This document shows, piece by piece, positions 1,449 through 37,011 of a DNA stretch of 37,298 nt. The stretch is from a virus (Duplodnaviria; Heunggongvirae; Uroviricota; Caudoviricetes). The first letter of the stretch is position 1; each line of letters starts with the position of its first letter. The stretch lies in the IMG/VR virus record IMGVR_UViG_2737471849_000005; one strand, 5' to 3'. A model generated the notes under the pieces. It saw only the letters and a list, made by a program, of their open reading frames with translations, ran no database searches and had not been told where the DNA came from. The position numbers and the translations under genes are program-made.

Positions 1449-2105
1449 CTATTTAACATACTTGACTGTTAAACTTATAATTTTACCAATTATTTCAATG
1501 TCTTCTATCTTGCATTCGAAGGCTCTGTTTCCACCCTCGACGAAGATTCTTCCACCGGGTAAACGAGTAATGTCACGGATCGTTATTTCGCCATCAATAC
1601 TTATTACCCATTTACCATCACGTATATCATCAAATTCTTTATCACAAATAAATTCAGAATTGTTATCTGTGATGACAAAAGGTTTTTTAAACGTAGAGGG
1701 TAGAAATCCCTTATCAAAAATATAAAAACCGTCTTTCTGCAATGCTCCATCAGACAATAAATATTTTTCTACTTCTATAGTATTTGTATTTGCTGATGCT
1801 TGCTTTGAACCATGCCCTGTTGTTAGCCAATTAAGCGAGGTGCCCGTTTCAAGGGCGCACTGGATTACCCAATCTGCTGGAAAAATATCACGCATATAGC
1901 GCGTTGCCATAGTGCTCTTAGAAACACCTAAATGATCACAGAGAGCCTGACGAGTACCGAACCCATATGCTTCAACTAAACGTTCTATGGCTTTCTTACC
2001 GCCGCTATTGAAATCCACAAGTCCTCCAAAGAAATCCAAAATTCGTTGACAGATTCCAAAAGCGATCTTAAAGTTGAACCAGAAGTGTTCTTTTGGAGCC
2101 TTCAC
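1449..2105 (-). CDS. cI: CI-like immunity repressor (186 CI type, HTH N-domain)
   Basis: The translation contains EAYGFG...CALETG.SLNWLTTG and a C-terminal ...RLPGG...ECKIEDIEIIG that resemble phage 186 CI. It is divergent from apl. The exact start is uncertain. Confidence 0.75.
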   Translation of the reverse strand: MKAPKEHFWFNFKIAFGICQRILDFFGGLVDFNSGGKKAIERLVEAYGFGTRQALCDHLGVSKSTMATRYMRDIFPADWVIQCALETGTSLNWLTTGHGSKQASANTNTIEVEKYLLSDGALQKDGFYIFDKGFLPSTFKKPFVITDNNSEFICDKEFDDIRDGKWVISIDGEITIRDITRLPGGRIFVEGGNRAFECKIEDIEIIGKIISLTVKYVK

Positions 2106-4005: not shown

Positions 4006-4232
4006 TGGCTGATGCAATGGATCTCGTACAGCAGCGAGTTGAAGAAGAACGCCAACGTCATATCCGTGCTGCCCGTGCCAAAACGCCGGGCGTGTCCCGC
4101 GTGCTTTGCGTTGAGTGTGAAGCGCCAATTCCGCCAGCACGCCGCCGTGCCATTCCGGGGGTGCAGCTTTGCATTACCTGTCAGGAAATCGCAGAGCTGA
4201 AAGGCAAACATTACAACGGAGGTGCTGTATGA
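4005..4232 (+). CDS. TraR/DksA-family C4 zinc-finger protein (P2 orf82-like)
   Basis: The translation has a CVECEAPIP...CITC four-cysteine motif typical of phage TraR-like proteins. Confidence 0.75.
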   Translation: MADAMDLVQQRVEEERQRHIRAARAKTPGVSRVLCVECEAPIPPARRRAIPGVQLCITCQEIAELKGKHYNGGAV

Positions 4233-5086
4233 GCACCATCCTGAAATGGGCGGGAAATAAAACCGCCATTATGTCCGAACTGAAAAAACACCTTCCTGCT
4301 GGCCCGCGACTGGTTGAACCTTTCGCGGGTTCCTGTGCTGTGATGATGGAGACGGATTACCCCAGCTATCTGGTTGCGGATATTAATCCTGATTTAATCA
4401 ACCTCTATAAAAAGGTTGCTGCTGATTGTGAATCGTTTATATCTCGCGCCAGAGTTTTATTTGAGATCGCAAACAGGGAGGTGGCTTATTACAACATAAG
4501 GCAGGAGTTTAATTACTCCACTGAAATTACTGATTTCATGAAAGCGGTATATTTCCTGTATCTCAATCGTCACGGTTACCGTGGTTTATGTCGCTATAAC
4601 AAGAGCGGGCATTTCAACATTCCCTACGGTAATTATAAAAATCCGTATTTCCCTGAAAAAGAAATTCGCGCATTTGCAGAAAAGGCCCAGCGAGCAACGT
4701 TTATCTGCGCCAGCTTTGATGAAACGCTGGCGATGTTGAAGGCGGGGGATGTGGTGTATTGCGATCCGCCGTATGACGGTAAGTTTTCCGGCTATCACAC
4801 TGATGGTTTCACTGAAGATGACCAGTATCACCTGGCATCTGTTCTTGAACATCGGTCATCAGAAGGACATCCGGTCATTGTTTCTAACAGTGACACATCC
4901 CTGATCCGTTCGCTGTATCGCAATTTTACTCATCACTACATCAAGGCAAAACGCAGCATCGGTGTGGCAGCTGGCGAGGGTAAATCAGCAACAGAAATCA
5001 TTGCTGTTTCCGGGCCGCGCTGCTGGGTGGGATTTGATTATTCGCGTGGCGTGGATAGTTCTGCCGTGTACGGAGTACGTGCATGA
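4229..5086 (+). CDS. dam: DNA adenine methyltransferase (Dam-like, GATC type)
   Basis: The translation has the N-terminal [11 protein letters not shown]...PFAGS motif and the DPPY catalytic motif (VYCDPPYDG). Its start overlaps the TraR stop and its stop overlaps the A start (ATGA). Confidence 0.85.
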
Positions 5087-7649: not shown

Positions 7650-7838
7650 ATGCAGGACTATTTTTTGGAGTCTTTGAAGCTCCAGCGCATTGATTTTTTT
7701 CTTAAGCTTGTAGCGGCTAGTGAGTGTAGTGATGAAGAGAAGGGGCTGGCTCTGCAGTGGGTTTCTGAACTGACAGATGAACTCATGGCAAAAATCAGAA
7801 GCCACGAATACAACCGCTCAATGGATGTCATCAGCTGA
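7650..7838 (+). CDS. Small SOS-controlled protein (62 aa), possibly the N-terminal part of a Tum-like antirepressor
   Basis: An AGGAGG RBS precedes the ATG. It is the first ORF downstream of the LexA box. Confidence 0.5.
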   Translation: MQDYFLESLKLQRIDFFLKLVAASECSDEEKGLALQWVSELTDELMAKIRSHEYNRSMDVIS

Positions 7839-7848
7839 GGTGACTTTT

Positions 7849-8082
7849 ATGCGCATTGAAATAATGATCGATAAAGAGCAGAAGATTAGCCAGTCTACCC
7901 TGGACGCCCTTGAATCCGAGCTTTACCGCAATCTGCGCCCCCTGTATCCCAAAACGGTAATCCGTATCCGTAAAGGTAGCTCTAACGGTGTGGAACTGAC
8001 CGGACTGCAACTGGACGAAGAAAGAAAACAAGTGATGAAAATTATGCAGAAGGTGTGGGAAGACGACAGCTGGCTGCATTGA
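7849..8082 (+). CDS. DinI-like protein (77 aa)
   Basis: The translation MRIEIMIDKEQ...LDALESELYRNL...KIMQKVWEDDSWLH follows the DinI pattern (MRIEV..I.K...ALE.EL.RR...I..I.QE.WE..D.W). Confidence 0.75.
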   Translation: MRIEIMIDKEQKISQSTLDALESELYRNLRPLYPKTVIRIRKGSSNGVELTGLQLDEERKQVMKIMQKVWEDDSWLH

Positions 8083-8195
8083 TTTTGTCAATAGACGCTT
8101 GTTTTTACTAATCAAAAAGGGTTACATATGAGTGAGAGGCGATGTCAATCAGATATCGCCTTGTTTTTTGTCAAGAAAAGAATAATAGGCTAAAA

Positions 8196-8873
8196 ATGAA
8201 AATTAATAATGTAGCGTTACCAATATCTCTTGCTGTAATCCTAACTGGTTGCGTGCCACATGCTTCTAACCGAAATATCACTGCTATTGAAGTGGTGAAG
8301 CCTGCTATTGGGCAAAGTGCTACCGCCTACATGGGCGATCCCATTATCACATCTGCTACTGGATTTAAAACGGACGTACTAGAACTTGGTGCGGCTAATG
8401 GTGCATTGTCTTCTATCGCTGCTGGTACATATTGCAGTGAGGGGAATGGAATTTACCGCAATTATCATAACCCTCAAGCTGTTGCGTTAAAAAATCTCTA
8501 TGGGCAAATCGGTAACTATGTTGATTATGTTAGTTACGATGCTGCAAAAAATGAGATATCACCGCCAAATGGTACTTCTTATACTGCATCAGAAATTTCT
8601 ATCAAACGTGTTCCTGATGGGCTGTGTCGAGTTAGTAACTCATTGGTTAAGACTATCGAATACAATGGAAATGCAGGCGGTGTAATGAAGTTCACCTATC
8701 GTGAATTTGCAAACGATATGGCTCGTGCAGCATTTACAACAGATTTTTCTGTAGATTCTAAGGGAAGTGACGTTATCGCTTACAAAGGTGCCAAGTTCAA
8801 AGTGAACAAGGCTGATAACTCGTCTATTTCTTATACAATTATTTCTGGCTTTGACAAGGCTGTCACGTTCTAG
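8196..8873 (+). CDS. Predicted lipoprotein (226 aa), unknown function
   Basis: The N-terminus MKINNVALPISLAVILTGC carries a lipobox (LTGC). The gene is AT-rich, and the protein is Gly/Ser/Thr-rich and ends in Phe. Confidence 0.6.
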   Translation: MKINNVALPISLAVILTGCVPHASNRNITAIEVVKPAIGQSATAYMGDPIITSATGFKTDVLELGAANGALSSIAAGTYCSEGNGIYRNYHNPQAVALKNLYGQIGNYVDYVSYDAAKNEISPPNGTSYTASEISIKRVPDGLCRVSNSLVKTIEYNGNAGGVMKFTYREFANDMARAAFTTDFSVDSKGSDVIAYKGAKFKVNKADNSSISYTIISGFDKAVTF

Positions 8874-9198: not shown

Positions 9199-11535
9199 AT
9201 GATTGAAGAGGTAGTTATTGACAAAGTAGGCTCATATAATGGCCCTACTCAGCTTTTACATGGGCTTTCTAAATTTAACTATTTATATGGAGCTAATGGT
9301 GCAGGTAAAACAACTATAAGTAAAATTATTAATGACCCTGAACAATATCCAACATGTCCGATTAAATGGAAAAATAATATATCTTTAATAAGCTACGTAT
9401 ATAATAAAGATTTTGTTGAAAGAAATTTTAGTCAAGATAAAATTAAAGGTGTATTTACCCTTGGTAGCGATCTTAAGGAGGATGAAGAGAAACTAATATC
9501 TCTTGAAGAAGAAAAAAATAAGCTAATAGAATCTATTATAGCAAAGGAAAAGCTAATAGATGGTGGTGATAATATATTAGGCGTTGTTAAACAAATCGAA
9601 GACCATGAAAAATCTTTTAAAGATTCATGTTGGAAGCAAAAAGTAAAACATGATAATGTGTTCTCAAAGGCTTTTGAGGGATTAAGGAATAGTAGTGAAA
9701 AATTTAAAGCTAGAGTGTTGGCTGAGTATGAAAATAACACATCAGAAGTTTGCTCAATAGCAGAGCTAATTGAGAAAGCAAAAATTGTTTTTTCTACTGA
9801 ATTGACATCACATGTATCAATTACAATTCCATCCTTCAATGGGATAGATGATATTTTGAGTAGGGAGATTTGGAGTGAGCGTATTCTAGGGAAAAAAGAC
9901 GTTAGTGTTTCAGACTTAATTACAATGCTCAATAACAGTGATTGGGTTAAGGAAGGTTTAACATATTTCAGTAAATCTAATCCCAAGTGCCCATTCTGCC
10001 AGCAGGATGTAAATGATAATATATTTGATAATCTATCATCATATTTTGATAAAACATATGAGTTAAAAAAAAGAGAAATCGATGCATTGGTTTTACAATA
10101 TGAACATCAACTTAATAATATCTTGCAGGCGATAGATGATATAAGGGCGATTAAATCTCCATTCATAAATTATGAAGTATTTGAGGATAAGGCTAAGATA
10201 GTATTATCTGAATTAAACAAGAATTTTGAATTGGCAAAAAATAAACGCAATTTTTTAAGTGAATCAGTTCATTTTAGTGACTTAAGTGAAGTTGTTGATG
10301 ATTTTATTTCTTTTTTGAATGATTCAAATCTATTGATAGATAATAATAACAAAATACACAGTAATAGAAAGGTAGAGGCTAGTAATCTTTCTAATCAGAT
10401 ATGGGCATATATCGTAAAGGTGGAGTTAAAGTCTGAAATAACTTCTTACCGTAGCGAATCTGATAAATTTAATAGGAAGTTACAAGGACTTAAATCTGGG
10501 TTAGAGGAAGACAAAAAGAAGTTAATGTTAAATGCTTCGGCTATTGAGGCAATTGAGTCTAATAAAACCAGTACTCTTCCAACTATTACAAAAATTAACA
10601 AGATTCTGGATTCTTATGGCTTCAAAAATTTTTACTTAAAACCCTCCGAAGATAAAAAGCATTATATGATAGTGAGAGATAGTGGAGATAATGCTCGTAC
10701 AACCCTTAGCGAGGGAGAAAAGACATTTATCACTTTTTTGTATTTTTATAGCCTTGTTAGAGGGAGTGATAATGCATCAGGTGTTTTAGATGATCGTGTT
10801 GTAGTATTTGATGATCCAATTTCAAGTTTAGATAGTGATATTCTGTTTATTGTAAGTTCGTTGATTAAAGATTTAATGGAGGATGTTCGTAAGGATGAAG
10901 GAAATATTAAGCAAATTATATTCCTTACACATAATATTTATTTTCATAAAGAGTTGACTTTTAATACTAAAAGATCCGGTAATCAAGCAATGAAAGAGGA
11001 GACTTTTTGGATTGTAAGGAAAAAAGGGAAGGTCTCATATCTTGAAAAGTGCGAATCAAACCCAATAAAAACGTCTTATGATTTGCTCTGGTGCGAATTG
11101 AGAAGAACAGATATTAATAATAATACTATACAAAATACAATGCGAAGGATTTTGGAGAATTACTTTAAGATATTAGGTGGGATGGATATTAGGAAGCTTG
11201 AATGTCATTTTTATGGTGATGAAAAAATCATATTTAAATCTTTAGTGTCATGGATTAATGATGGTTCTCATTTTGCAGGTGATGATCTTTATATGAATTT
11301 AGATACGGAGTCTGTGCAAAAATATTTAATTGTTTTTCAGAAGATATTTGAGTGTAGTGAGCATACTGCCCATTACAAAATGATGATGGGTGAGTTTTAT
11401 AGACCGTTAAATGAGTCACTTCATCTACAAGATGAGTTTGATATTGATGATAGTGCGAATGATGAGTATGCTTCGTCAAAAATTGAGATAGAAGATGGAA
11501 TAAACACATCTCTACATAGCAATACATATTTGTAA
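9199..11535 (+). CDS. ABC/Rad50-like ATPase (778 aa), RloC/PrrC-like; candidate anti-phage defence protein
   Basis: The translation has Walker A GANGAGKTT, ABC-signature-like LSEGEK, Walker B/D-loop VVVFDDPISSLD and H-loop FLTHN. A long Lys/Glu-rich insert contains CPFC. The C-terminal region has RRILE (R-x3-E) and RKLECH (R-x4-H). The gene is very AT-rich. Confidence 0.7.
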   Translation: MIEEVVIDKVGSYNGPTQLLHGLSKFNYLYGANGAGKTTISKIINDPEQYPTCPIKWKNNISLISYVYNKDFVERNFSQDKIKGVFTLGSDLKEDEEKLISLEEEKNKLIESIIAKEKLIDGGDNILGVVKQIEDHEKSFKDSCWKQKVKHDNVFSKAFEGLRNSSEKFKARVLAEYENNTSEVCSIAELIEKAKIVFSTELTSHVSITIPSFNGIDDILSREIWSERILGKKDVSVSDLITMLNNSDWVKEGLTYFSKSNPKCPFCQQDVNDNIFDNLSSYFDKTYELKKREIDALVLQYEHQLNNILQAIDDIRAIKSPFINYEVFEDKAKIVLSELNKNFELAKNKRNFLSESVHFSDLSEVVDDFISFLNDSNLLIDNNNKIHSNRKVEASNLSNQIWAYIVKVELKSEITSYRSESDKFNRKLQGLKSGLEEDKKKLMLNASAIEAIESNKTSTLPTITKINKILDSYGFKNFYLKPSEDKKHYMIVRDSGDNARTTLSEGEKTFITFLYFYSLVRGSDNASGVLDDRVVVFDDPISSLDSDILFIVSSLIKDLMEDVRKDEGNIKQIIFLTHNIYFHKELTFNTKRSGNQAMKEETFWIVRKKGKVSYLEKCESNPIKTSYDLLWCELRRTDINNNTIQNTMRRILENYFKILGGMDIRKLECHFYGDEKIIFKSLVSWINDGSHFAGDDLYMNLDTESVQKYLIVFQKIFECSEHTAHYKMMMGEFYRPLNESLHLQDEFDIDDSANDEYASSKIEIEDGINTSLHSNTYL

Positions 11536-13320: not shown

Positions 13321-15086
13321 CAAAAAATCTCCACAATATTGCTGTTATTGGCGGATTCGCCCTGCAGCGGTTCGTTAAACAGTGCGTGCATTGTTGCCCA
13401 GGCCAGATCGGCGTGGCTGGCTTCTTCGCTGCGGCTGGCTTCATAGGTCGGGCGGTTGCCGCTGGCAGTGGTGGCGCGACGGATTGCCATAAAGGACTGC
13501 GCTATGTCGGTGTGCCCGGCGTCAAACTCCAGGCGGCGGTGGCTAATAATGTCGTAGGCCTTGAGTACCAGGGCGTTTTTAACGTTGGGGTTGTAGACAA
13601 ACTCCCGGACGGCAGGAAAAAACGCTTTCACGTTCTCGTAAACCCCGTGACCGACGCCGGTTGAGTCGATACCGATGTATATCACGTTGTACTGTTCAGT
13701 CAGTTTTTTGATGGCGTCAGCCTGGGCGCGGAAGTCCATCCCGCGCCACTGGTGACGCTCAAGAATGCGGAACTTACCGCCCGGCACGGCTGGCGGTGCC
13801 ACCACCACGCACCCGGCGCTGTCGCCGTTTTGCGTACCTTTTGCCGGGTCATAACCGATCCACACTTCGCGCCAGCCAAACGGGCGCAGGGCCAGTGCAT
13901 GAAAGTCGGTCCAGACTTCCCAACTGTCCACCATGCACGCCTGCAGCTCGCTGAGCGGGAACACGGACGCGAGATCGTCCACAAACTCGCACATCAGCAG
14001 GTTCTGGTATTCGTCCGGGCTGTACTCCATGCGCAACTGATCGAGGTCGAAAAGGTTACATCCGCCGCGCACTGCATCTTCCACGGTGACTATCTGGCGG
14101 TATTGCCCGTCTGCGCACAGCAGGCCGGGGGCCAGATTGCTGTGGGACAGGTCGATGTCCACCTTATCGGCTTTGTTGCGCCCACGGTTGAACAGCGCAC
14201 CGGACCAGAACGGATAAGCACTGTGTGTCAGGCTGGATGGCGTGGAAAAATAGGTCTGTCGCCATTTTTTGTGAATAGCCATACCGGAAGCCACTTTGCG
14301 CAGCTCCTGGAATTTCGGTATCCAGAAATATTCATCCAGATACAGGTTACCGTGATAACTCTGGGCAGTGCGGGCATTGGTGCCGAGGAAATACAGTGTG
14401 GCCCCGTTGGGAAGCACCATCGGATCGCCTTTCAGCTCCACCTCCACTTCTTTGGCAAAGTCGATGATGTACTGTTTGAAGACGTGGGCCTGTGCCTTAC
14501 TGGCAGAAAGGAAAATCTGGTTACGTCCGGTAAGCAGGGCGTCAATCAGGGCTTCACGGGCAAAATAGAAGGTCGCGCCGATCTGGCGTGACTTCAGCAG
14601 GTTGCGGATGCGGTTGGTTTTTCCGGCTTCCCACCAGTGGCGCTGGTAGTTGAACATGGAGGAATGGAAAATTTCTTCCAGCTTCTCAATCTGGTCATCG
14701 GTGAAAACATTCTTTTCAGGCTGACGGCGTGGGCCTTTGTTGCGGTTGGCGACGTTAGGGTTTAAGTCGGCTTCGTTGCCGCCATTGTTAAACTTGCCGA
14801 TCCGCGCGTGGCGCTCAGACTGGCGCGCCAGCAGGTCAATCTCTTTGAAATCTTTCCCTTCTTTGTGCTCCTTCATGATGAGCTGGCAGTAGCGTGCGGC
14901 GGTGGTGAGCTGCATCTGATCCAGAGGCCCATAGTCACCCCACTTGTCGCGTTTTTTCCAGCTGTGAACGGTTGCAACTTTCTCGCCCAGCATTTCAGCA
15001 ATGCGGGCTACGCGGTATCCCTGAAAGTACAGCAGCATGGCCTGCCGACGGGGATCGAGATCTGCGGGTGTCAGTGTGGTGTTCAT
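13320..15086 (-). CDS. P: Terminase large subunit / ATPase (P2 gpP family)
   Basis: A 588-aa ORF with an N-terminal HTH-like region and an ATPase core, at the P2 P position divergent from O. Confidence 0.88.
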   Translation of the reverse strand: MNTTLTPADLDPRRQAMLLYFQGYRVARIAEMLGEKVATVHSWKKRDKWGDYGPLDQMQLTTAARYCQLIMKEHKEGKDFKEIDLLARQSERHARIGKFNNGGNEADLNPNVANRNKGPRRQPEKNVFTDDQIEKLEEIFHSSMFNYQRHWWEAGKTNRIRNLLKSRQIGATFYFAREALIDALLTGRNQIFLSASKAQAHVFKQYIIDFAKEVEVELKGDPMVLPNGATLYFLGTNARTAQSYHGNLYLDEYFWIPKFQELRKVASGMAIHKKWRQTYFSTPSSLTHSAYPFWSGALFNRGRNKADKVDIDLSHSNLAPGLLCADGQYRQIVTVEDAVRGGCNLFDLDQLRMEYSPDEYQNLLMCEFVDDLASVFPLSELQACMVDSWEVWTDFHALALRPFGWREVWIGYDPAKGTQNGDSAGCVVVAPPAVPGGKFRILERHQWRGMDFRAQADAIKKLTEQYNVIYIGIDSTGVGHGVYENVKAFFPAVREFVYNPNVKNALVLKAYDIISHRRLEFDAGHTDIAQSFMAIRRATTASGNRPTYEASRSEEASHADLAWATMHALFNEPLQGESANNSNIVEIF

Positions 15087-22039: not shown

Positions 22040-22934
22040 CCTTTCGCAGTTGCCTGCACCGCAGATTGTGGATGTGCCGGACTTTGAGACGCTGCTTGCC
22101 GAACGCAAGGCCCAATTTGTGGCGCTTCATCCGAAAGATGAGCAGGAAGCCGTGATCCGAACGCTGGAACTGGAATCTGAACCCGTCACTAAATTGTTGC
22201 AGGAGAACGCTTACCGTGAGTTGCTTCTGCGCCAGCGCATTAACGAAGCCGCGCAGGCGGTGATGGTGGCTTACGCGATGGGCGGCGATCTTGACCAGCT
22301 CGCTGCCAACTACAACGTGACACGCCTGACGGTGACGCCTGCTGATAATGATGCTGTGCCGCCCGTTGCAGCTGTGATGGAAAGCGATGAAGCGTTACGC
22401 CTGCGTGTGCCTGCAGCCTTTGAAGGGCTTTCTGTTGCGGGGCCAACTGCAGCTTATGAATTTCATGCCCGAAGCGCCGACGGTCGGGTGGCGGATGCCA
22501 GTGCAACCAGCCCGGCACCTGCAGAGGTGGTGCTGACTGTCCTTAGCCGCGAAGGCGATGGAACTGCAGAAAAAGACCTGCTGGACGTGGTGGAAAAAGC
22601 TCTGAACAGTGAGAACGTCCGCCCGGTGGCTGACCGTCTGACGGTTCGCAGCGCAGAAATCATCCCGTATCGCGTGGAAGCCACCATTTTTCTCTATCCG
22701 GGACCGGAAGCAGAGCCGGTAATGGCAGCGGCAAAAGCCAGCCTGCAGAAGTACATCGCCAGTCAGACGCGTCTTGGTCGGGATATTCGCCGTAGCGCCA
22801 TCTTTGCCGCCCTGCATGTTGAGGGTGTGCAGCGTGTGGAGCTGGCTTCTCCTCTGGCGGATGTGGTCCTGAACAAAACACAGGCGGCATCATGTGCGCA
22901 GTGGAGCGTAACCAACGGAGGAACGGATGAATAG
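22026..22934 (+). CDS. J: Baseplate protein J (gpJ family)
   Basis: An RBS precedes MAVIDLSQL at 22026. Confidence 0.85.
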   Translation: MAVIDLSQLPAPQIVDVPDFETLLAERKAQFVALHPKDEQEAVIRTLELESEPVTKLLQENAYRELLLRQRINEAAQAVMVAYAMGGDLDQLAANYNVTRLTVTPADNDAVPPVAAVMESDEALRLRVPAAFEGLSVAGPTAAYEFHARSADGRVADASATSPAPAEVVLTVLSREGDGTAEKDLLDVVEKALNSENVRPVADRLTVRSAEIIPYRVEATIFLYPGPEAEPVMAAAKASLQKYIASQTRLGRDIRRSAIFAALHVEGVQRVELASPLADVVLNKTQAASCAQWSVTNGGTDE

Positions 22935-23532
22935 TCTGCTGCCACCGGGTTCAACTTCACTGGAGCGCCGACTGGCGCAAACCTGTAGCGGGATTTCTGA
23001 TCTGCAGGTGCCGCTGCGTGACTTGTGGAATCCGGCTACCTGTCCGGTCAGCTTCCTGCCTTATCTCGCCTGGGCGTTCTCTGTGGATCGCTGGGACGAG
23101 GGCTGGACAGAAAGCGTCAAACGCCAGGTAGTGAAGGATGCTTTTTATATTCATCAGCATAAAGGAACCACCAGTGCCGTGCGGCGGGTGGTGGAACCGT
23201 TCGGATTCCTGATCCGCATTATTGAGTGGTGGCAGACCGGAGAAACACCGGGCACGTTTCGCCTGGATATCGGCGTGCAGGACCAGGGCATCACTGAAGA
23301 TACCTATCTGGAACTTGAGCGGCTGATAAGCGATGCCAAACCATGTAGCCGTCACATGATCGGCATGTCCATCAATCTGCAGACCAGCGGTCCGCATTGG
23401 GTGGGGGCCGCCAGCTATCTTGGCGAAGAAATCACGATCTATCCGTATATCAACGAAACAATTATTTCTGGCGGCACCGCGCATGAAGGCGGGGCGGTCC
23501 ATGTTATTGACACAATGAGAGTGAATCCATGA
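22927..23532 (+). CDS. I: Baseplate/tail protein I (gpI family)
   Basis: Position and size match P2 I. Confidence 0.8.
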   Translation: MNSLLPPGSTSLERRLAQTCSGISDLQVPLRDLWNPATCPVSFLPYLAWAFSVDRWDEGWTESVKRQVVKDAFYIHQHKGTTSAVRRVVEPFGFLIRIIEWWQTGETPGTFRLDIGVQDQGITEDTYLELERLISDAKPCSRHMIGMSINLQTSGPHWVGAASYLGEEITIYPYINETIISGGTAHEGGAVHVIDTMRVNP

Positions 23533-25085
23533 GCACAAAATTTTATACCCTGCTGACGGATATTGGCGCGGCGAAACTTGCCAGCGCCGCCGCGCTCGGT
23601 GTGCCGCTAAAAATTACCCATATGGCGGTCGGCGATGGCGGCGGAGTATTGCCAACGCCAGACTCAAAGCAGACTGCACTGGTAAATGAGAAACGCCGGG
23701 CTGCGCTGAATATGCTCTATATCGACCCGCAGAACAGCAGCCAGATTATTGCCGAACAGGTGATCCCTGAAAACGAGGGCGGTTGGTGGATACGTGAAGT
23801 GGGCTTGTTTGATGAGTCCGGGGCATTGATTGCCGTGGGCAACTGCCCGGAAAGCTATAAGCCGCAACTGGCTGAAGGTAGCGGGCGCACTCAGACCGTG
23901 CGCATGGTGCTGATTACCAGCAGCACGGACAATATCACCCTGAAAATCGACCCTGCCGTAGTGCTGGCAACCCGCAAGTATGTGGATGACAAGGCACTGG
24001 AGCTGAAGGTGTACGCGGATGATCAGATGGCAAAACATCTTGCCGCACCGGACCCGCATTCACAGTATGCACCCAAAGAAAGTCCGACGTTTACCGGGAC
24101 ACCCAAAGCGCCAACGCCAGCGGCGGGGAATAACACCACGCAGATTGCGACCACCGCGTTTGTTCAGGCGGCTCTGACGGCTCTTATTAATGGTGCGCCA
24201 GCCACGTTGGACACGCTGAAAGAAATAGCCGCAGCCATTAACAATGATCCGAAATTCAGTACCACCATTAACAATGCGCTGGCACTGAAAGCGCCGCTGT
24301 CGAGTCCGGCACTCACCGGAACGCCAACCGCACCTACTGCGGCACAGTCGGTCAACAATACACAGATTGCCACCACGGCATTTGTGAAATCGGCGATTGC
24401 GGCAATGGTGGGTTCTGCACCTGCGGCACTGGATACACTGAACGAACTGGCGGCAGCGCTGGGGAATGACCCGAACTTTGCCACGACAATGCTTAATGCG
24501 CTGGCAGGTAAACAACCGCTGGACAATACGCTGACTAATTTGAGTGGAAAGGATGTAGCTGGTCTTCTCACATACCTTGGTTTGGGAGAAGGTTCAGCAT
24601 TACCTGTTGGTGCACCTGTTCCGTGGCCTTCAGAGACACCTCCAACAGGCTGGCTGAAATGCAACGGAGCAGCTTTTTCTGCTGAAGAATACCCGGAACT
24701 GGCAAAGGCTTACCCGACAAATAAATTGCCTGATTTACGTGGTGAGTTTATTCGTGGCTGGGATGATTCTAGAGGGATTGATACGGGGCGTTCATTGCTA
24801 AGTGGTCAGGCTGCAACATTTATTCGTACAGCTTTGCAGGATTATTACGGTTACGATCTGAATACTAATGTCAAAGTAGGTATCGCTTTTGCTACTGCTG
24901 ATTCTGTTATAACTGTTGGAAACCCAGCTAATCCTAAAGCAGGAAATAATAGCGATTATGTTCCTGCATCAGCAGATAACTCCATAACGGGTACTCAAAG
25001 GACAGCGGAGGATAATTTTACCGGGGCATGGATATCAATGCGCCCTCGTAACCTTTCATTTAATTACATCGTGAGGGCTGCATAA
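23529..25085 (+). CDS. H: Tail fibre protein H; C-terminal third lies inside the invertible segment
   Basis: The N-terminal sequence MSTKFYTLLTDIGAAKLA fits P2 H. The protein has internal repeats, and a recombination site lies within the gene at 24565-24590. Confidence 0.85.
   Translation: MSTKFYTLLTDIGAAKLASAAALGVPLKITHMAVGDGGGVLPTPDSKQTALVNEKRRAALNMLYIDPQNSSQIIAEQVIPENEGGWWIREVGLFDESGALIAVGNCPESYKPQLAEGSGRTQTVRMVLITSSTDNITLKIDPAVVLATRKYVDDKALELKVYADDQMAKHLAAPDPHSQYAPKESPTFTGTPKAPTPAAGNNTTQIATTAFVQAALTALINGAPATLDTLKEIAAAINNDPKFSTTINNALALKAPLSSPALTGTPTAPTAAQSVNNTQIATTAFVKSAIAAMVGSAPAALDTLNELAAALGNDPNFATTMLNALAGKQPLDNTLTNLSGKDVAGLLTYLGLGEGSALPVGAPVPWPSETPPTGWLKCNGAAFSAEEYPELAKAYPTNKLPDLRGEFIRGWDDSRGIDTGRSLLSGQAATFIRTALQDYYGYDLNTNVKVGIAFATADSVITVGNPANPKAGNNSDYVPASADNSITGTQRTAEDNFTGAWISMRPRNLSFNYIVRAA
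24565..24590. repeat. Gin/Pin-type crossover site (left), inside H
   Basis: The sequence TTCTCACATACCTTGGTTTGGGAGAA is an imperfect 26-bp palindrome. Its right half is the reverse complement of the left half of the site at 26465-26490. Confidence 0.55.
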
Positions 25086-25687
25086 TGGATAATGCCGTAT
25101 TAAATAGCGAGTTTATTGCCACGAAGGCGGGGGATATTACTGTCTATAATTATAATGGTGAAACACGAGAATATATTTCCACATCAACTGAATATCTTGC
25201 TGTTGGTGTCGGTATTCCGGCATGTTCCTGTTTAGATGCACCAGGAACATATAAAGCTGGTTATGCCATCTGCCGCTCTGCGGATTTAAACTCATGGGAA
25301 TATGTGCCAGACCATCGCGGAGAAATCGTCTATAACACCGAAACGGGAGACGCCAAAGAAATCACAACTCCGGGTGATTACCCCGAAAATACAACCACTA
25401 TCGCCCCATTAACGCCATACGATAAATGGGATGGTGAGAAATGGGTGACCGATACTGAGGCACAGCATCACGCCGCAGTAGACGCGGCAGAAGCACAGCG
25501 TCAGTCACTGATTGATACTGCAATGGCTTCCATTAGTCTGATTCAACTGAAATTACAGGCTGGGCGGAAGCTGATGCAGGCAGAGACCTCCCGACTTAAC
25601 ACTGTGCTGGATTACATTGACGCGGTGACGGCAACAGATACCAGCACCGCGCCGGATGTCATCTGGCCTGAACTGCCGGAGGAGTAG
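25085..25687 (+). CDS. G: Tail fibre assembly chaperone G (Tfa)
   Basis: Position and the conserved C-terminal ...DYIDAV.ATDTSTAPDVIWPELPE tail. Confidence 0.8.
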   Translation: MDNAVLNSEFIATKAGDITVYNYNGETREYISTSTEYLAVGVGIPACSCLDAPGTYKAGYAICRSADLNSWEYVPDHRGEIVYNTETGDAKEITTPGDYPENTTTIAPLTPYDKWDGEKWVTDTEAQHHAAVDAAEAQRQSLIDTAMASISLIQLKLQAGRKLMQAETSRLNTVLDYIDAVTATDTSTAPDVIWPELPEE

Positions 25688-26099
25688 GCCATTCAATATC
25701 TGGCGCACTGGAAGTATCGACCAGCTCCAGTGCGTCCAGATAATCCAGCCACAAATTATATTGCGCCAGTTCCTCACCTTTCAGACGACCAATAGCCGCT
25801 TTACCAGCCCATTGTTTACTGTTCATATAATCGTTGGCCTGATTAATCAATTGCTGCTTTTTAAGTTCGGCTGCAGCAATCTGTTCCTCATGTGTTGGTG
25901 GTGGAATTTCAGACCATGCAGGAAAACCATTTTCTCCAGCGATACGGATTTTTCCTTTCGGCGGTAATCCGGAAAACTCAATATACACTTGCTCATCAAC
26001 TTCAACAGCATCATCTGGCCATGAGTCAGCTTGCGTGTAATCCTCTTTCATCTCCAAGGGATAGAAAGAGTTTGTAGTCGCGGAATATATGTAATTCAT
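25659..26099 (-). CDS. Alternative tail fibre assembly chaperone (Tfa') on the inverted strand
   Basis: Its C-terminal ...DYLDALELVDTSSAPDIEWPTPP tail is homologous to the G C-terminus. It is convergent with G. Confidence 0.7.
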   Translation of the reverse strand: MNYIYSATTNSFYPLEMKEDYTQADSWPDDAVEVDEQVYIEFSGLPPKGKIRIAGENGFPAWSEIPPPTHEEQIAAAELKKQQLINQANDYMNSKQWAGKAAIGRLKGEELAQYNLWLDYLDALELVDTSSAPDIEWPTPPAVQAR

Positions 26100-26125
26100 T
26101 TTTCACTCCATAAAGTTAAAAGAAA

Positions 26126-26518
26126 TTAACACCCTAATGCGAAAAATGAAGCACCGATACCGGGTACGCCTGCTCTGGAAATAAATTTCACCGGGTCCTG
26201 GTTATAACCGGCACAAGCTATATAGCCAACATTTGCACTGCCGGGAGTGTAATCCTGAGTCGCAAATACCCGCAGACATCTATTCGGAAATGCAATCGGA
26301 AAATAGGTTACTGTGTCCTGAGACGTCAGCGGAACATCAATTGGCCCCCATTGAATAATTAAACCGGATGGCAATTTTTGATATCCAGGAACTGAAGCAG
26401 AAAGCATAAAACTACCCATATCAGGTATCTGATTCGCCCCTGTCCCTACATTTCTTTTAGCCGCTTCTCCCAAACCAACGTTTAAGAAAATGCAGCGATT
26501 ACGGCTAACTGGCATCAT
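26126..26518 (-). CDS. Alternative tail-fibre C-terminal segment (Sv'-like), promoterless until inversion
   Basis: The minus-strand frame runs through the crossover site and encodes ..VGLGE.. there, matching ..LGLGE.. in H at the left site. Confidence 0.55.
26465..26490. repeat. Gin/Pin-type crossover site (right)
   Basis: The sequence TTCTCCCAAACCAACGTTTAAGAAAA fits the pattern TTnTCnnAAACC..GTTT..GA.AA of gix/cix-type sites, in inverted orientation to the site in H. Confidence 0.55.
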
Positions 26519-26545
26519 CCCCTATTTTTATTCAGGGAGATGATC

Positions 26546-27112
26546 ATGCTTATTGGCTATGTACGCGTGTCAACAAATGACCAGAACACCGATTTGCAAC
26601 GTAATGCGCTGAACTGCGCGGGATGTGAGCGGATTTTTGAGGACAAAATCAGTGGCACTAAGTCCGACAGACCGGGGCTTAAAAAACTGCTCAGGACACT
26701 ATTGGCAGGAGACACGCTGGTTGTCTGGAAGCTGGACAGGTTGGGGCGCAGTATGCGGCATCTTGTTACGCTGATAGAAGAGTTGCGCCAGCGTGGTGTG
26801 AATTTCCGAAGCCTGACTGACAGTATTGATACCAGTACCCCAATGGGCCGTTTCTTTTTTCATGTCATGGGTGCCCTGGCTGAAATGGAACGCGAACTGA
26901 TAGTTGAACGTACCCGGGCAGGGCTGGCTGCAGCTCGTGCTAAAGGCAGAGTAGGTGGACGCCGTCCTAAGTTGACCACTGAACAGTGGGCACAGATTGG
27001 ACGTTTACTCGAGGCCGGAGAATCAAGACAGCGTATTGCACTGATTTTTGATGTAGGCGTTTCTACCATTTATCGAAAATTTCCGGCAAATAAGAGCAAT
27101 AAATCTCCCTGA
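26546..27112 (+). CDS. Serine recombinase DNA invertase (Gin/Pin/Cin/Hin family)
   Basis: The translation MLIGYVRVSTNDQNTDLQRNAL...VVWKLDRLGRSM...FRSLTDSIDTS.PMGRFFFHVMGALAEMEREL is almost collinear with Mu Gin as I recall it. A GGGAGA RBS precedes the start. Confidence 0.9.
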   Translation: MLIGYVRVSTNDQNTDLQRNALNCAGCERIFEDKISGTKSDRPGLKKLLRTLLAGDTLVVWKLDRLGRSMRHLVTLIEELRQRGVNFRSLTDSIDTSTPMGRFFFHVMGALAEMERELIVERTRAGLAAARAKGRVGGRRPKLTTEQWAQIGRLLEAGESRQRIALIFDVGVSTIYRKFPANKSNKSP

Positions 27113-27162
27113 ATCAGCTTTATTTTGATTATCCCTGAAAGCAGACAAATACCGTCATTTTG

Positions 27163-27180
27163 TGTGAATAACGGTACAAC
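27163..27180. promoter_or_regulatory. Ogr/B-type late activator site TGT-N12-ACA upstream of FI
   Basis: The sequence is TGTgtgaataacggtACA. Its centre is about 85 bp upstream of the FI start. Confidence 0.45.
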
Positions 27181-34678: not shown

Positions 34679-36364
34679 TTATCCTAATCCTGGCCATACC
34701 ATGACGATGATTGTCCCTGCCAGCGTCAGCAGGACGTTGGCGATTGCATAGGTGCCCGCATAGCCCAGCGCCGGGATGTTACTGCGAGCTGTATCACTGA
34801 TGATCTCCATTGCCGGCGCGCAGGTACGTGCGCCCATCATTGCGCCGAACAACAGTGCGCGGTTCATTCGCAATACATAAGCACCGAACAAGAAACAGAT
34901 AACCACGGGCACCAGACTGACAATCAATCCGGCAATCAACATCTGACCGCCAATCGCGCCCAGGCCGTTATTAATACCGCTACCGGCGCTCAGACCAACG
35001 CCTGCCATAAACACCATCAAGCCGAACTCTTTCACCATGCTTAATGCACCTTGCGGAATGTAACCGAAGGTCGGGTGGTTAGCACGCATAAAGCCCAGCA
35101 TAATTCCGGCGAATAACAACCCGGCAGCGTTCCCCATGCCGAAACTGAATGTGCTGAACTGGAAGGTGATCATCCCGATCATCAGCCCAATAACAAAGAA
35201 GGCGCAAAATGCCAGCAGGTCAGTGACCTGGCTGTGAATCGAGATAAAGCCGATGCGATCGGCGATGGTTTTTACGCGACGGGCATCACCGCTGACTTGT
35301 AAAACGTCACCTTTGTTAAGCACGACGTTGTCATCTATCGGCATCTCAATCTGGCTACGAATGACGCGGTTAAGGAAGCAACCGTGATCGGTCAACTTCA
35401 GTTGTGCGAGACGTTTACCTACAGCGTTATGGTTTTTAACGACCACTTCTTCAGTGACGATACGCATGTCGAGAAGGTCACGATCGAAAACTTCTTTACC
35501 GTTACGGAAGCTGGGATCGAGTCGGGCATGGGCGTCGGGATAGCCTACCAACGCTATTTCATCGCCCATTTGTAGCACGGCATCACCGTCTGGATTTGCC
35601 AGAATCCCGTTACGTCGAATACGTTCAATGTAGCAGCCGGTTTGTCGATAAATACCCAGTTCACGCAGATTTTTGCCGTCGGTCCAGGCCACCAGCTCCG
35701 GGCCGACGCGATAGGCGCGGATCACCGGTAAATAAACCTTACGGTTGGCATCAGTGTCCAGGCCACGTTCGCGGGCGATTTGCTGGGCGCTGGTCTGTAA
35801 GTCCTGATGCTGCAATTTCGGCAAGTAACGCGCACCAACAATCAAACTCACCAGACCGATTAAATAGGTTAAGGCATACCCGAGGCTCAGATTATCCAGT
35901 GCCAGTGAGAGCTGCCTGCTTTCCATGCCGGAATGACGCAGTGTATCGCCAGCACCGACCAGAACCGGTGTCGACGTCATAGAGCCTGCTAACATACCGG
36001 CCGTCAGGCCAATATCCCAGCCAAACAGCTTACCTAACCCTAAGGCGATCACCAGCGCACTGCCAACCATCACCAGTGCTAACATTAGGTAATTTTTCCC
36101 ATCGCGAAAAAAAATGGAAAAAAAGTTCGGTCCGGCTTCGACCCCGACGCAGAAAATAAACAGCATAAAGCCAAGATTAAGCGCATCGGTGTTAATGCTG
36201 AAATGTTGTTGGCCTAATAACAGCGATACGACTAAAACGCCAATGGAATTACCCAGTTGGATCGAACCAAGTCGTAACTTTCCGAGACATAGCCCAAGCG
36301 CGAGGACCACAAATAATAACAGAATGTAATTCCCATTTAACAATTCGGCGACGTTTATATTCAC
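34679..36364 (-). CDS. ybjL: Putative AAE-family transport protein YbjL (host)
   Basis: A 561-aa polytopic membrane protein whose N-terminal [29 protein letters not shown] matches E. coli YbjL as I recall it. Confidence 0.85.
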
Positions 36365-36633
36365 GGAGGCTAACTTCTTGTTTACTAGTAAGCTGTTGAA
36401 AGAAATGGTAATTTACGATAATGTTTTTTACCAGAATTCAGGGCGCAGATTCATTCAGCGCACCTAAACGATAGTAAAGTAACAATATATTTTACTAGTG
36501 TAATCACATTAGGTATCAACGGCTATATGAATTGCGTTGGCCTATATTAGCATGGAATGCGAAGCGGCTTTATCTTACTGAACGCCACACTGGCGAAAAA
36601 TGTGTTCGATAGACGCAGTGTCAGGAGGAACGA

Positions 36634-37011
36634 GTGAAACATAAACAACGTTGGGCGGGGGCAATCTGCTGTTTTGTCCTCTTCATTGTGGTGTGCCTTT
36701 TTCTGGCGACGCACATGAAAGGCGCTTTTCGGGCTGCCGGGCATCCTGAAATCGGCTTGCTATTTTTCATTCTTCCTGGAGCAGTGGCCAGCTTCTTTTC
36801 ACAGCGTAGAGAAGTCCTGAAACCTCTGTTTGGCGCAATGCTGGCGGCACCCTGTTCGATGCTCATTATGCGGCTGTTTTTTTCACCGACGCGCTCATTC
36901 TGGCAAGAGCTGGCATGGTTACTAAGCGCGGTGTTCTGGTGTGCGCTGGGGGCACTGTGTTTCTTATTTATCAGTAGTTTGTTTAAACCACAGCACAGAA
37001 AAAATCAGTAA
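36634..37011 (+). CDS. ybjM: Inner membrane protein YbjM (host)
   Basis: A 125-aa membrane protein between ybjL and grxA, as in the E. coli chromosome. Confidence 0.75.
   Translation: MKHKQRWAGAICCFVLFIVVCLFLATHMKGAFRAAGHPEIGLLFFILPGAVASFFSQRREVLKPLFGAMLAAPCSMLIMRLFFSPTRSFWQELAWLLSAVFWCALGALCFLFISSLFKPQHRKNQ

Follow-up and report, generated by a model that had tools for sequence, protein, structure and literature searches.

The P segment of e14, a cryptic prophage of E. coli K-12, inverts at the repeat TTGGTTTGGGAGAAGG, and Pin enzymes have been shown by experiment to invert it (PMC12529663). In P2-like prophages of enteropathogenic Escherichia coli (EPEC), inversions have been detected by sequencing, with both orientations coexisting in cultures (PMC4272514), and a survey of P2-like hotspots already remarks on invertases with inverted neighbours in the slot between genes G and FI. 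Fin, another invertase, is carried by prophage Fels-2 and is able to invert the Salmonella H segment (PMC4122451). Here we consider a stretch of 37,298 nucleotides assigned to the Caudoviricetes (IMG/VR virus record IMGVR_UViG_2737471849_000005; hereafter "the window", meaning this whole stretch), in which the tail-fibre gene H of a P2/186-like E. coli prophage very probably contains a two-state, site-specific inversion switch of the Pin/Gin/Cin type. The parts of this switch are listed below, with positions counted from the first nucleotide of the window.

24565-24590: left crossover site (L), inside H, composed of TTCTCACATACC-TT-GGTTTGGGAGAA and encoding ..TYLGLGE; core dinucleotide at 24577-24578.
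26465-26490: right crossover site (R), composed of TTCTCCCAAACC-AA-CGTTTAAGAAAA; core dinucleotide at 26477-26478.
24577-26478: invertible segment, 1902 base pairs (bp) from core to core, delimited by an in-silico flip and by inversions among relatives.
23529-25085, plus strand: tail-fibre gene H, 518 amino acids (aa), with the Pfam domains Phage_tail_fib (N-terminal, 8.8e-65) and Collar (3.6e-15).
25085-25687, plus strand: Tfa, the TfaE-like chaperone of the present tip, 200 aa, Pfam Caudo_TAP (4.1e-31).
25659-26099, minus strand: Tfa', a TfaP-like alternative assembly chaperone, 146 aa, Pfam Caudo_TAP (2.3e-38).
26126-26478, minus strand: alternative fibre C-terminus, GLGE plus 112 aa, Pfam Gp53-like_C (1.3e-18).
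26546-27112, plus strand: serine DNA invertase of the Pin/Cin/Gin/Hin family, 188 aa, Pfam Resolvase (1.2e-52) and HTH_7 (1.4e-15).
26564-26635 (nucleotides 19-90 of the invertase gene): candidate recombinational enhancer, with two 15-bp Fis-type cores at 26568-26582 and 26616-26630.

The invertase of the window shares 86% identity with PinE of e14, 25 of the 26 positions of site R agree with the right site of e14, and the inner repeat of the window, TTGGTTTGGGAGAAGG, is the same as the repeat quoted for e14 (PMC12529663). The arrangement is also alike, with a tip and its Tfa on one strand, Tfa' and the second tip on the other strand and the invertase downstream, and TfaE, the StfE tip and TfaP are 88%, 56% and 61% (the last over 102 aa) identical to their counterparts in the window. 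By contrast, the gp53-like tip of the window is only distantly related to StfP (32% over 60 aa). The e14 prophage has decayed, its stf genes are truncated and its segment measures 1797 bp, whereas the window has a segment of 1902 bp in an H gene of P2 type and full length, and its prophage appears complete.

With Mu Gin and P1 Cin the window has in common the mechanism, 12-bp half-sites around a 2-bp core (TT/AA, as in cix), a constant fibre N-terminus outside the segment with two convergent cassettes of tip and chaperone, and an invertase beyond the distal site with an enhancer in its 5' coding region. The segments of these phages are larger, however (about 3.06 kb in Mu, taken between the annotated G-segment boundaries, and about 4.26 kb in P1), and the tail module of the window is P2-type. 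The two variable tips of the window gave no BLASTP match at E < 1e-3 to the tips of Mu S and S', P1 S or P2 H, which makes them different tips. A previous reading of this DNA made from its letters alone (hereafter the sequence-only reading) had described the locus as a Mu G-segment or P1 C-segment type of switch set in a P2-type tail; the mechanism and the layout stand, but the nearest characterised relative is the Pin/P segment of e14 and not Mu Gin.

The two crossover sites, each of 26 bp, are inverted relative to each other and have the 12 + 2 + 12 build of gix, cix and pix. A formal repeat search ranked the L/R pair as the top and longest inverted repeat of the region (27 nucleotides, 81% complementary, with a spacing of 1872 nucleotides). 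The inverted imperfect palindromes of the gix/cix type that the sequence-only reading had placed here were located correctly to the base, and R aligns to L as an inverted repeat. The inner half-sites of L and R are identical, and the core dinucleotides, TT and AA as read on the plus strand, are the same once orientation is corrected; serine invertases require matching core dinucleotides in order to religate after a 180-degree exchange. As palindromes both sites are imperfect, with 10 of 12 symmetric positions in L and 8 of 12 in R.

A weight matrix trained solely on four Mu gix and P1 cix sites (the annotated boundaries of the Mu G segment, P1 cixL and P1 cixR) returned L and R as its two top positions, at 22.4 and 23.3 bits, the third-best position in the 37-kb window scoring 11.8. 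Over 30 shuffles of the sequence the best score averaged 11.4, with a single shuffle reaching 21.2, and a symmetric consensus allowing up to three mismatches was matched in none of 100 shuffles. One such site might arise by chance about once per hundred windows; chance is no explanation for two inverted sites that lie in frame in fibre genes and beside an invertase. A shufflon with a third site, of the multi-site kind represented by Min of p15B, was considered and rejected, as only two positions in the window rise above the background of the matrix scan, and it is the absence of a third site from the window that makes this a two-state switch.

The constant part of H ends at about 24576, and its present variable tip, residues 355-518, holds the Collar domain. 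Both fibre frames read GLGE across the crossover (the frame of H running ...LTYLGLGEGSALP). When 24577-26478 is inverted in silico, site L is unchanged and an open H' of 466 aa takes the place of the present 518-aa H, its first 354 residues coming from H and its last 112 being the gp53-like tip, while the minus-strand assembly gene comes to lie behind H' on the same strand. The two Caudo_TAP genes, which have opposite orientations, each stand behind their own fibre C-terminus, and Tfa' is expressed from the late operon only after inversion. The gene layout claimed earlier, with the C-terminus of H and Tfa on the plus strand and an alternative C-terminus and Tfa' on the minus strand, agrees with the reading frames and with Pfam, and the in-frame variant of H that was expected upon inversion, with GLGE in both frames, is the uninterrupted H'. 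The two tips belong to unrelated Pfam folds, Collar and gp53-like_C, which is consistent with different receptors, and the host ranges that they confer may differ accordingly.

The open reading frame (ORF) of the alternative C-terminus extends to an ATG at 26518 (130 aa, 26126-26518, minus strand). This ATG lies outside the segment. The most sensible reading of the 130-aa ORF is that it represents the silent end of H', lacking a promoter, and is not an independent gene. Annotation pipelines give this stretch an entry of its own, as a "gp53-like domain-containing protein" of 130 aa, which is probably an annotation artefact. Between the two cassettes, the 3' ends of the convergent assembly genes share 29 bp (25659-25687), and the C-terminal motif that they share (LDYIDA... 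and LDYLDA...) gives rise to an additional inverted repeat in the middle of the segment (25606-25623 and 25732-25749, 18 nucleotides, 83% complementary).

The invertase, whose listed ORF begins two codons upstream of the start given above (at 26540), aligns without gaps over 184 residues to the crystal structure of Gin, 3uj3 (E = 1.6e-92), with Ser9 at the position of the nucleophile, a catalytic domain at the N-terminus and a helix-turn-helix at the C-terminus. Besides its identity to PinE, it is 79% identical to Cin and 75% to Gin, and its match to gamma-delta resolvase is weaker (E = 3.6e-34), so that it is closer to the invertases than to the resolvases. These domains and identities, and the position of the gene ahead of the sheath gene FI, bear out the proposal of a Gin-family invertase in the G-to-FI slot. 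Met114 is wild type in the window enzyme and is Val in the Fis-independent variant of Gin that was crystallised. In Hin, the basic residues 47, 48 and 51 of helix B, together with Q151, R154 and L155, which contact Fis, are conserved specifically in Fis/enhancer-dependent invertases (McLean et al., PMC3798978). With an offset of one residue, Hin K47, K/R48, K/R51, Q151, R154 and L155 correspond to K46, K47, R50, Q150, R153 and L154 of the window enzyme. A terminator scan around the invertase gave only a chance-level candidate, on the other strand.

The sequence-only reading had also proposed to look for a Fis-dependent enhancer in the 5' end of the invertase gene. In the P1 record, the C-inversion enhancer is placed at nucleotides 19-90 of cin, and the equivalent stretch of the window (26564-26635) aligns to it without gaps at 56 of 72 positions, and to pinE at 64 of 72, the identity in the rest of the gene being 0.675 to cin and 0.748 to pinE. 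In all four genes (that of the window, pinE, cin and gin) the Fis-type cores fall at nucleotides 23-37 and 71-85. In the window their centres are separated by 48 bp, the pair covers 63 bp, and the distance from the nearer centre to the core of site R is 97 bp. Each of the two 15-bp cores fits the degenerate motif K-N2-YR-N2-W-N2-YR-N2-M, reportedly given for Fis by Hübner and Arber. They also show the features described for Fis sites, namely edges occupied by G/C and, at positions ±3-4, a pyrimidine-purine step (PMC4784862). The enhancer of Hin, for comparison, measures 65 bp, has a Fis site at each end and lies about 100 bp from hixL (PMC3798978). At the level of sequence, the 5' end of the invertase gene contains a region homologous to the annotated cin enhancer with the expected geometry of Fis sites, and the reaction is presumably Fis-dependent. 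According to its published description, the Hin system of the Salmonella H segment resembles the window in enzyme family, in Fis/enhancer control, in contact residues and in enhancer geometry (PMC3798978), and differs from it in that Hin flips a promoter and does not swap coding ends.

In the mechanism that we propose, the 188-aa serine invertase would bind both 26-bp sites as dimers and would assemble an invertasome with host Fis bound to the enhancer in the 5' end of its own gene. Both sites would then be cut at the 2-bp core (TT/AA), one pair of subunits would rotate by 180 degrees, and religation would flip 24577-26478. With site L placed in H at the conserved LGLGE, the N-terminal two-thirds of the fibre, which are constant and are transcribed as part of the late V-W-J-I-H-G operon, would be joined to either of two tips, the alternative states being a Collar tip with a TfaE-like chaperone and a gp53-like tip with a TfaP-like chaperone. 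A population of lysogens would in this way release mixed virions with two receptor specificities, a form of host-range bet-hedging.

Both orientations occur in public genomes. E. coli NQ3 and LS4 are near-identical yak isolates (5,196,957 and 5,196,956 bp), and over the 9077 bp compared the sole difference between them is an exact inversion of the segment, NQ3 being oriented as the window and 97.7% identical to it over 3.2 kb. A public assembly collection has 1182 indexed blocks that contain exactly this 188-aa invertase, and ten loci carrying the identical protein were fetched for comparison. Four of these (L020, L017, L021 and L023) have exactly the L and R sites of the window, the identical invertase and a related 1903-bp cassette. 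In the 2551 bp from site L to the end of the invertase, L020 shows 1371 mismatches to L017, L021 and L023 as it stands and 0 once it is flipped in silico at the predicted cores. In strain 1EC213 the cassette of the window itself is found in the opposite orientation (1889 of 1902 positions identical, 99.3%), with flanks that are 96% identical. Of the complete genomes of E. coli, 28 have the flipped junction as a contiguous stretch and 4 have the window-type junction. The check for both orientations, also put forward by the sequence-only reading, was thus made on public genomes of relatives, and both were found there, among others in loci with the same sites and an identical invertase. Two further loci with the identical invertase, L018 and L024, have a shorter switch, in which 1100 bp separate the sites and the segment contains one tail fibre assembly gene, of 141 aa, pointing the same way as H in L018 and the opposite way in L024; since there is only one chaperone in this segment, one of the fibre forms would lack a co-transcribed chaperone.

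The breakpoints between NQ3 and LS4 can be placed anywhere in the window-equivalent intervals 24577-24592 and 26463-26478, which represent the shared 16 bp of inner half-site plus core. As they are resolved only to these 16 bp, the data alone do not name the mechanism, and both orientations might result from RecA-dependent recombination between short inverted repeats, or from choices made during assembly, the invertase being uninvolved. We regard this as extremely improbable. To recombine efficiently, RecA usually requires a longer stretch of identity than 16 bp, the repeats have the canonical form of invertase sites and adjoin a Pin-family enzyme, and an assembly that chooses one state from mixed reads still implies inversion. 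Moreover, it is this same repeat that Pin enzymes invert experimentally in e14 (PMC12529663).

Several observations weigh against a working switch. The window itself holds one orientation only; the outer half of L, which departs from the consensus, is the weakest half-site (8.5 versus 13.9 bits); and a simple scan around the invertase gene found no sigma-70-like promoter, with no promoter-like site upstream of it. As regards the enhancer, the bare pattern of two Fis-type motifs 48 bp apart occurs 5 times in the window, against 2.7 expected, and is equalled in 15 of 100 shuffles, so that the assignment rests on homology and on register and geometry; a synonymous-site test found no clear extra conservation across the enhancer region (8/22, 10/19 and 12/19 identical synonymous codons, against about 40% elsewhere) with the three genes compared (window, gin and cin), which are too few. 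The single orientation, the lack of a promoter-like site and the divergent half of L would all suit a frozen relic, in which sites and gene look intact yet the prophage no longer inverts and makes the Collar-type tip only. We hold such a relic to be very improbable, since the ORF of the invertase is uninterrupted and retains the catalytic and Fis-contact residues, both tips and both chaperones keep intact frames, and loci with the same L, R and invertase occur in both orientations in otherwise identical sequence. An active two-state switch remains by far the better account.

The surroundings of the switch were also considered, with the following additional features.

22927-23532, plus strand: gene I, Pfam Tail_P2_I.
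From 27255, plus strand: sheath gene FI.
1449-2105, minus strand: 186-type CI repressor, Phage_CI_repr and Phage_CI_C.
4169-5086, plus strand: D12-class Dam methyltransferase.
7777-8082, plus strand: DinI-like protein.

The window spans from the stop codon of the integrase to E. coli ybjL, ybjM and grxA. Its tail genes follow the P2-like (Peduoviridae) order, V-W-J-I-H-G and then FI-FII-E-T-U-D (Pfam Tail_P2_I, Phage_tail_fib, sheath and GPD), and Pfam, the gene order and the comparison with P2 agree with the P2-type tail module and the G-to-FI slot assumed at the outset; in P2 itself this interval holds Z/fun. Residues 1-354 of H share 50% identity with P2 H 1-364 and 81% with P1 S 253-412. 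Besides full sets of head, lysis and tail genes, the window contains replication gene A, genes for a 186-type CI repressor, a Dam methylase and a DinI-like protein, and a cargo gene, and from this gene content the prophage looks complete. The CI repressor, Dam and DinI-like genes together suggest an SOS-inducible, 186-like member and not one of the non-inducible P2 type; the DinI-like protein, we presume, resembles the Tum antirepressor of phage 186.

On the right, 34679-37011 belongs to the E. coli chromosome and shows 99.9% identity to sequenced strains; its genes are ybjL, ybjM and then grxA. The prophage is thus integrated beside ybjL, and its own right end holds the ogr and D genes; no tRNA gene was found in the window. 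Between the replication/DinI region and the portal, a location that corresponds to the old/tin cargo hotspot of P2, lies a 778-aa AAA_13 ATPase (9199-11535, plus strand; Pfam 5.8e-164) that matches the PADLOC candidate defence family PDC-S06 (E = 1.5e-266) and is probably an anti-phage cargo gene; a 243-aa ORF upstream of it (8142-8873, plus strand) has no Pfam or PADLOC match. Past the invertase, a TGT-N12-ACA motif seen by eye at 27161-27178, about 77 nucleotides upstream of the start codon of FI, fits the site of the P2/186 late-promoter activator (Ogr/B) and may be one, and the spacer between invertase and FI aligns ambiguously with the annotated pF region of P2.

In e14, inversion creates StfE2, which blocks the adsorption of T2 (PMC12529663). 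By analogy, the foremost benefit of the switch might be to the host, one orientation giving a fibre-derived protein that shields the lysogen from other phages. The alternative tip of the window has a gp53-like C-terminal domain, as does the protective StfE2, and the sites are nearly identical to those of e14. The apparent completeness of the prophage, however, with P2/186-type replication, head, lysis and tail genes, favours a classical host-range role over a purely host-domesticated one; the late gene H should be silent in a lysogen; the alternative tip has no more than the weak similarity to e14 StfP given above; and inspection of the sequence showed no evident promoter or good ribosome-binding site for a free-standing 130-aa ORF. 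A role centred on the host is therefore, in our judgement, very improbable, and we retain the host-range switch of a complete prophage as our interpretation. A separate consequence of the near-identity of the e14 sites is that the invertases could act on each other's segments in trans. That the window enzyme does act on other Pin-type segments of the same chromosome, and theirs on its own, and that one orientation might protect the lysogen from phages, seems to us unlikely, and the window offers no direct support for cross-talk or for host protection.

Among P2-like elements, the prophages of EPEC E2348/69 resemble the window in that their P2-like tail operon accommodates, between H and FI, an invertase together with tip and chaperone genes in inverted arrangement; one of these loci differs in being a shufflon, with three repeats and four variants, the window having two sites. 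Klebsiella phage KP12, Escherichia phage 500465-1 and a record named "Escherichia phage P2" (from O157:H43 strain T22) show the same layout, with DNA identities of 87-93%, and the records of these deposited phages annotate a DNA invertase. About a dozen Klebsiella P2-like phages share megablast homology with the window (96.5% from position 1) that stops exactly at 24590, the inner edge of L. In P2, H contains a lone gix-like site, TTATCGAATATCTCGGTTTACAGGAA (23.3 bits; P2 nucleotides 13857-13882, or L006 3358-3383), which encodes EYLGLQET and is equivalent to site L; P2 having no invertase, this appears to be a vestigial crossover site. The point at which the Klebsiella homology ends and the lone site of P2 together indicate that the site also marks a boundary of tip exchange between phages.

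The switch is real, and it is also ordinary and already known, being common and annotated both in RefSeq E. coli genomes and in deposited phages; inversion of this kind has been demonstrated experimentally for P2-like prophages, and no new mechanism is added here. If action in trans and protection of the lysogen were true, the switch would be a toggle of host defence as well as a host-range device of the phage. As it stands, its relevance is mainly to annotation and to phage typing: what is recorded on the minus strand as a 130-aa protein and a second assembly gene is the silent half of a switch and does not stand for two further genes; virions of two kinds can come from this prophage; and where assemblies of one strain disagree by this 1.9-kb inversion, the difference may be genuine.

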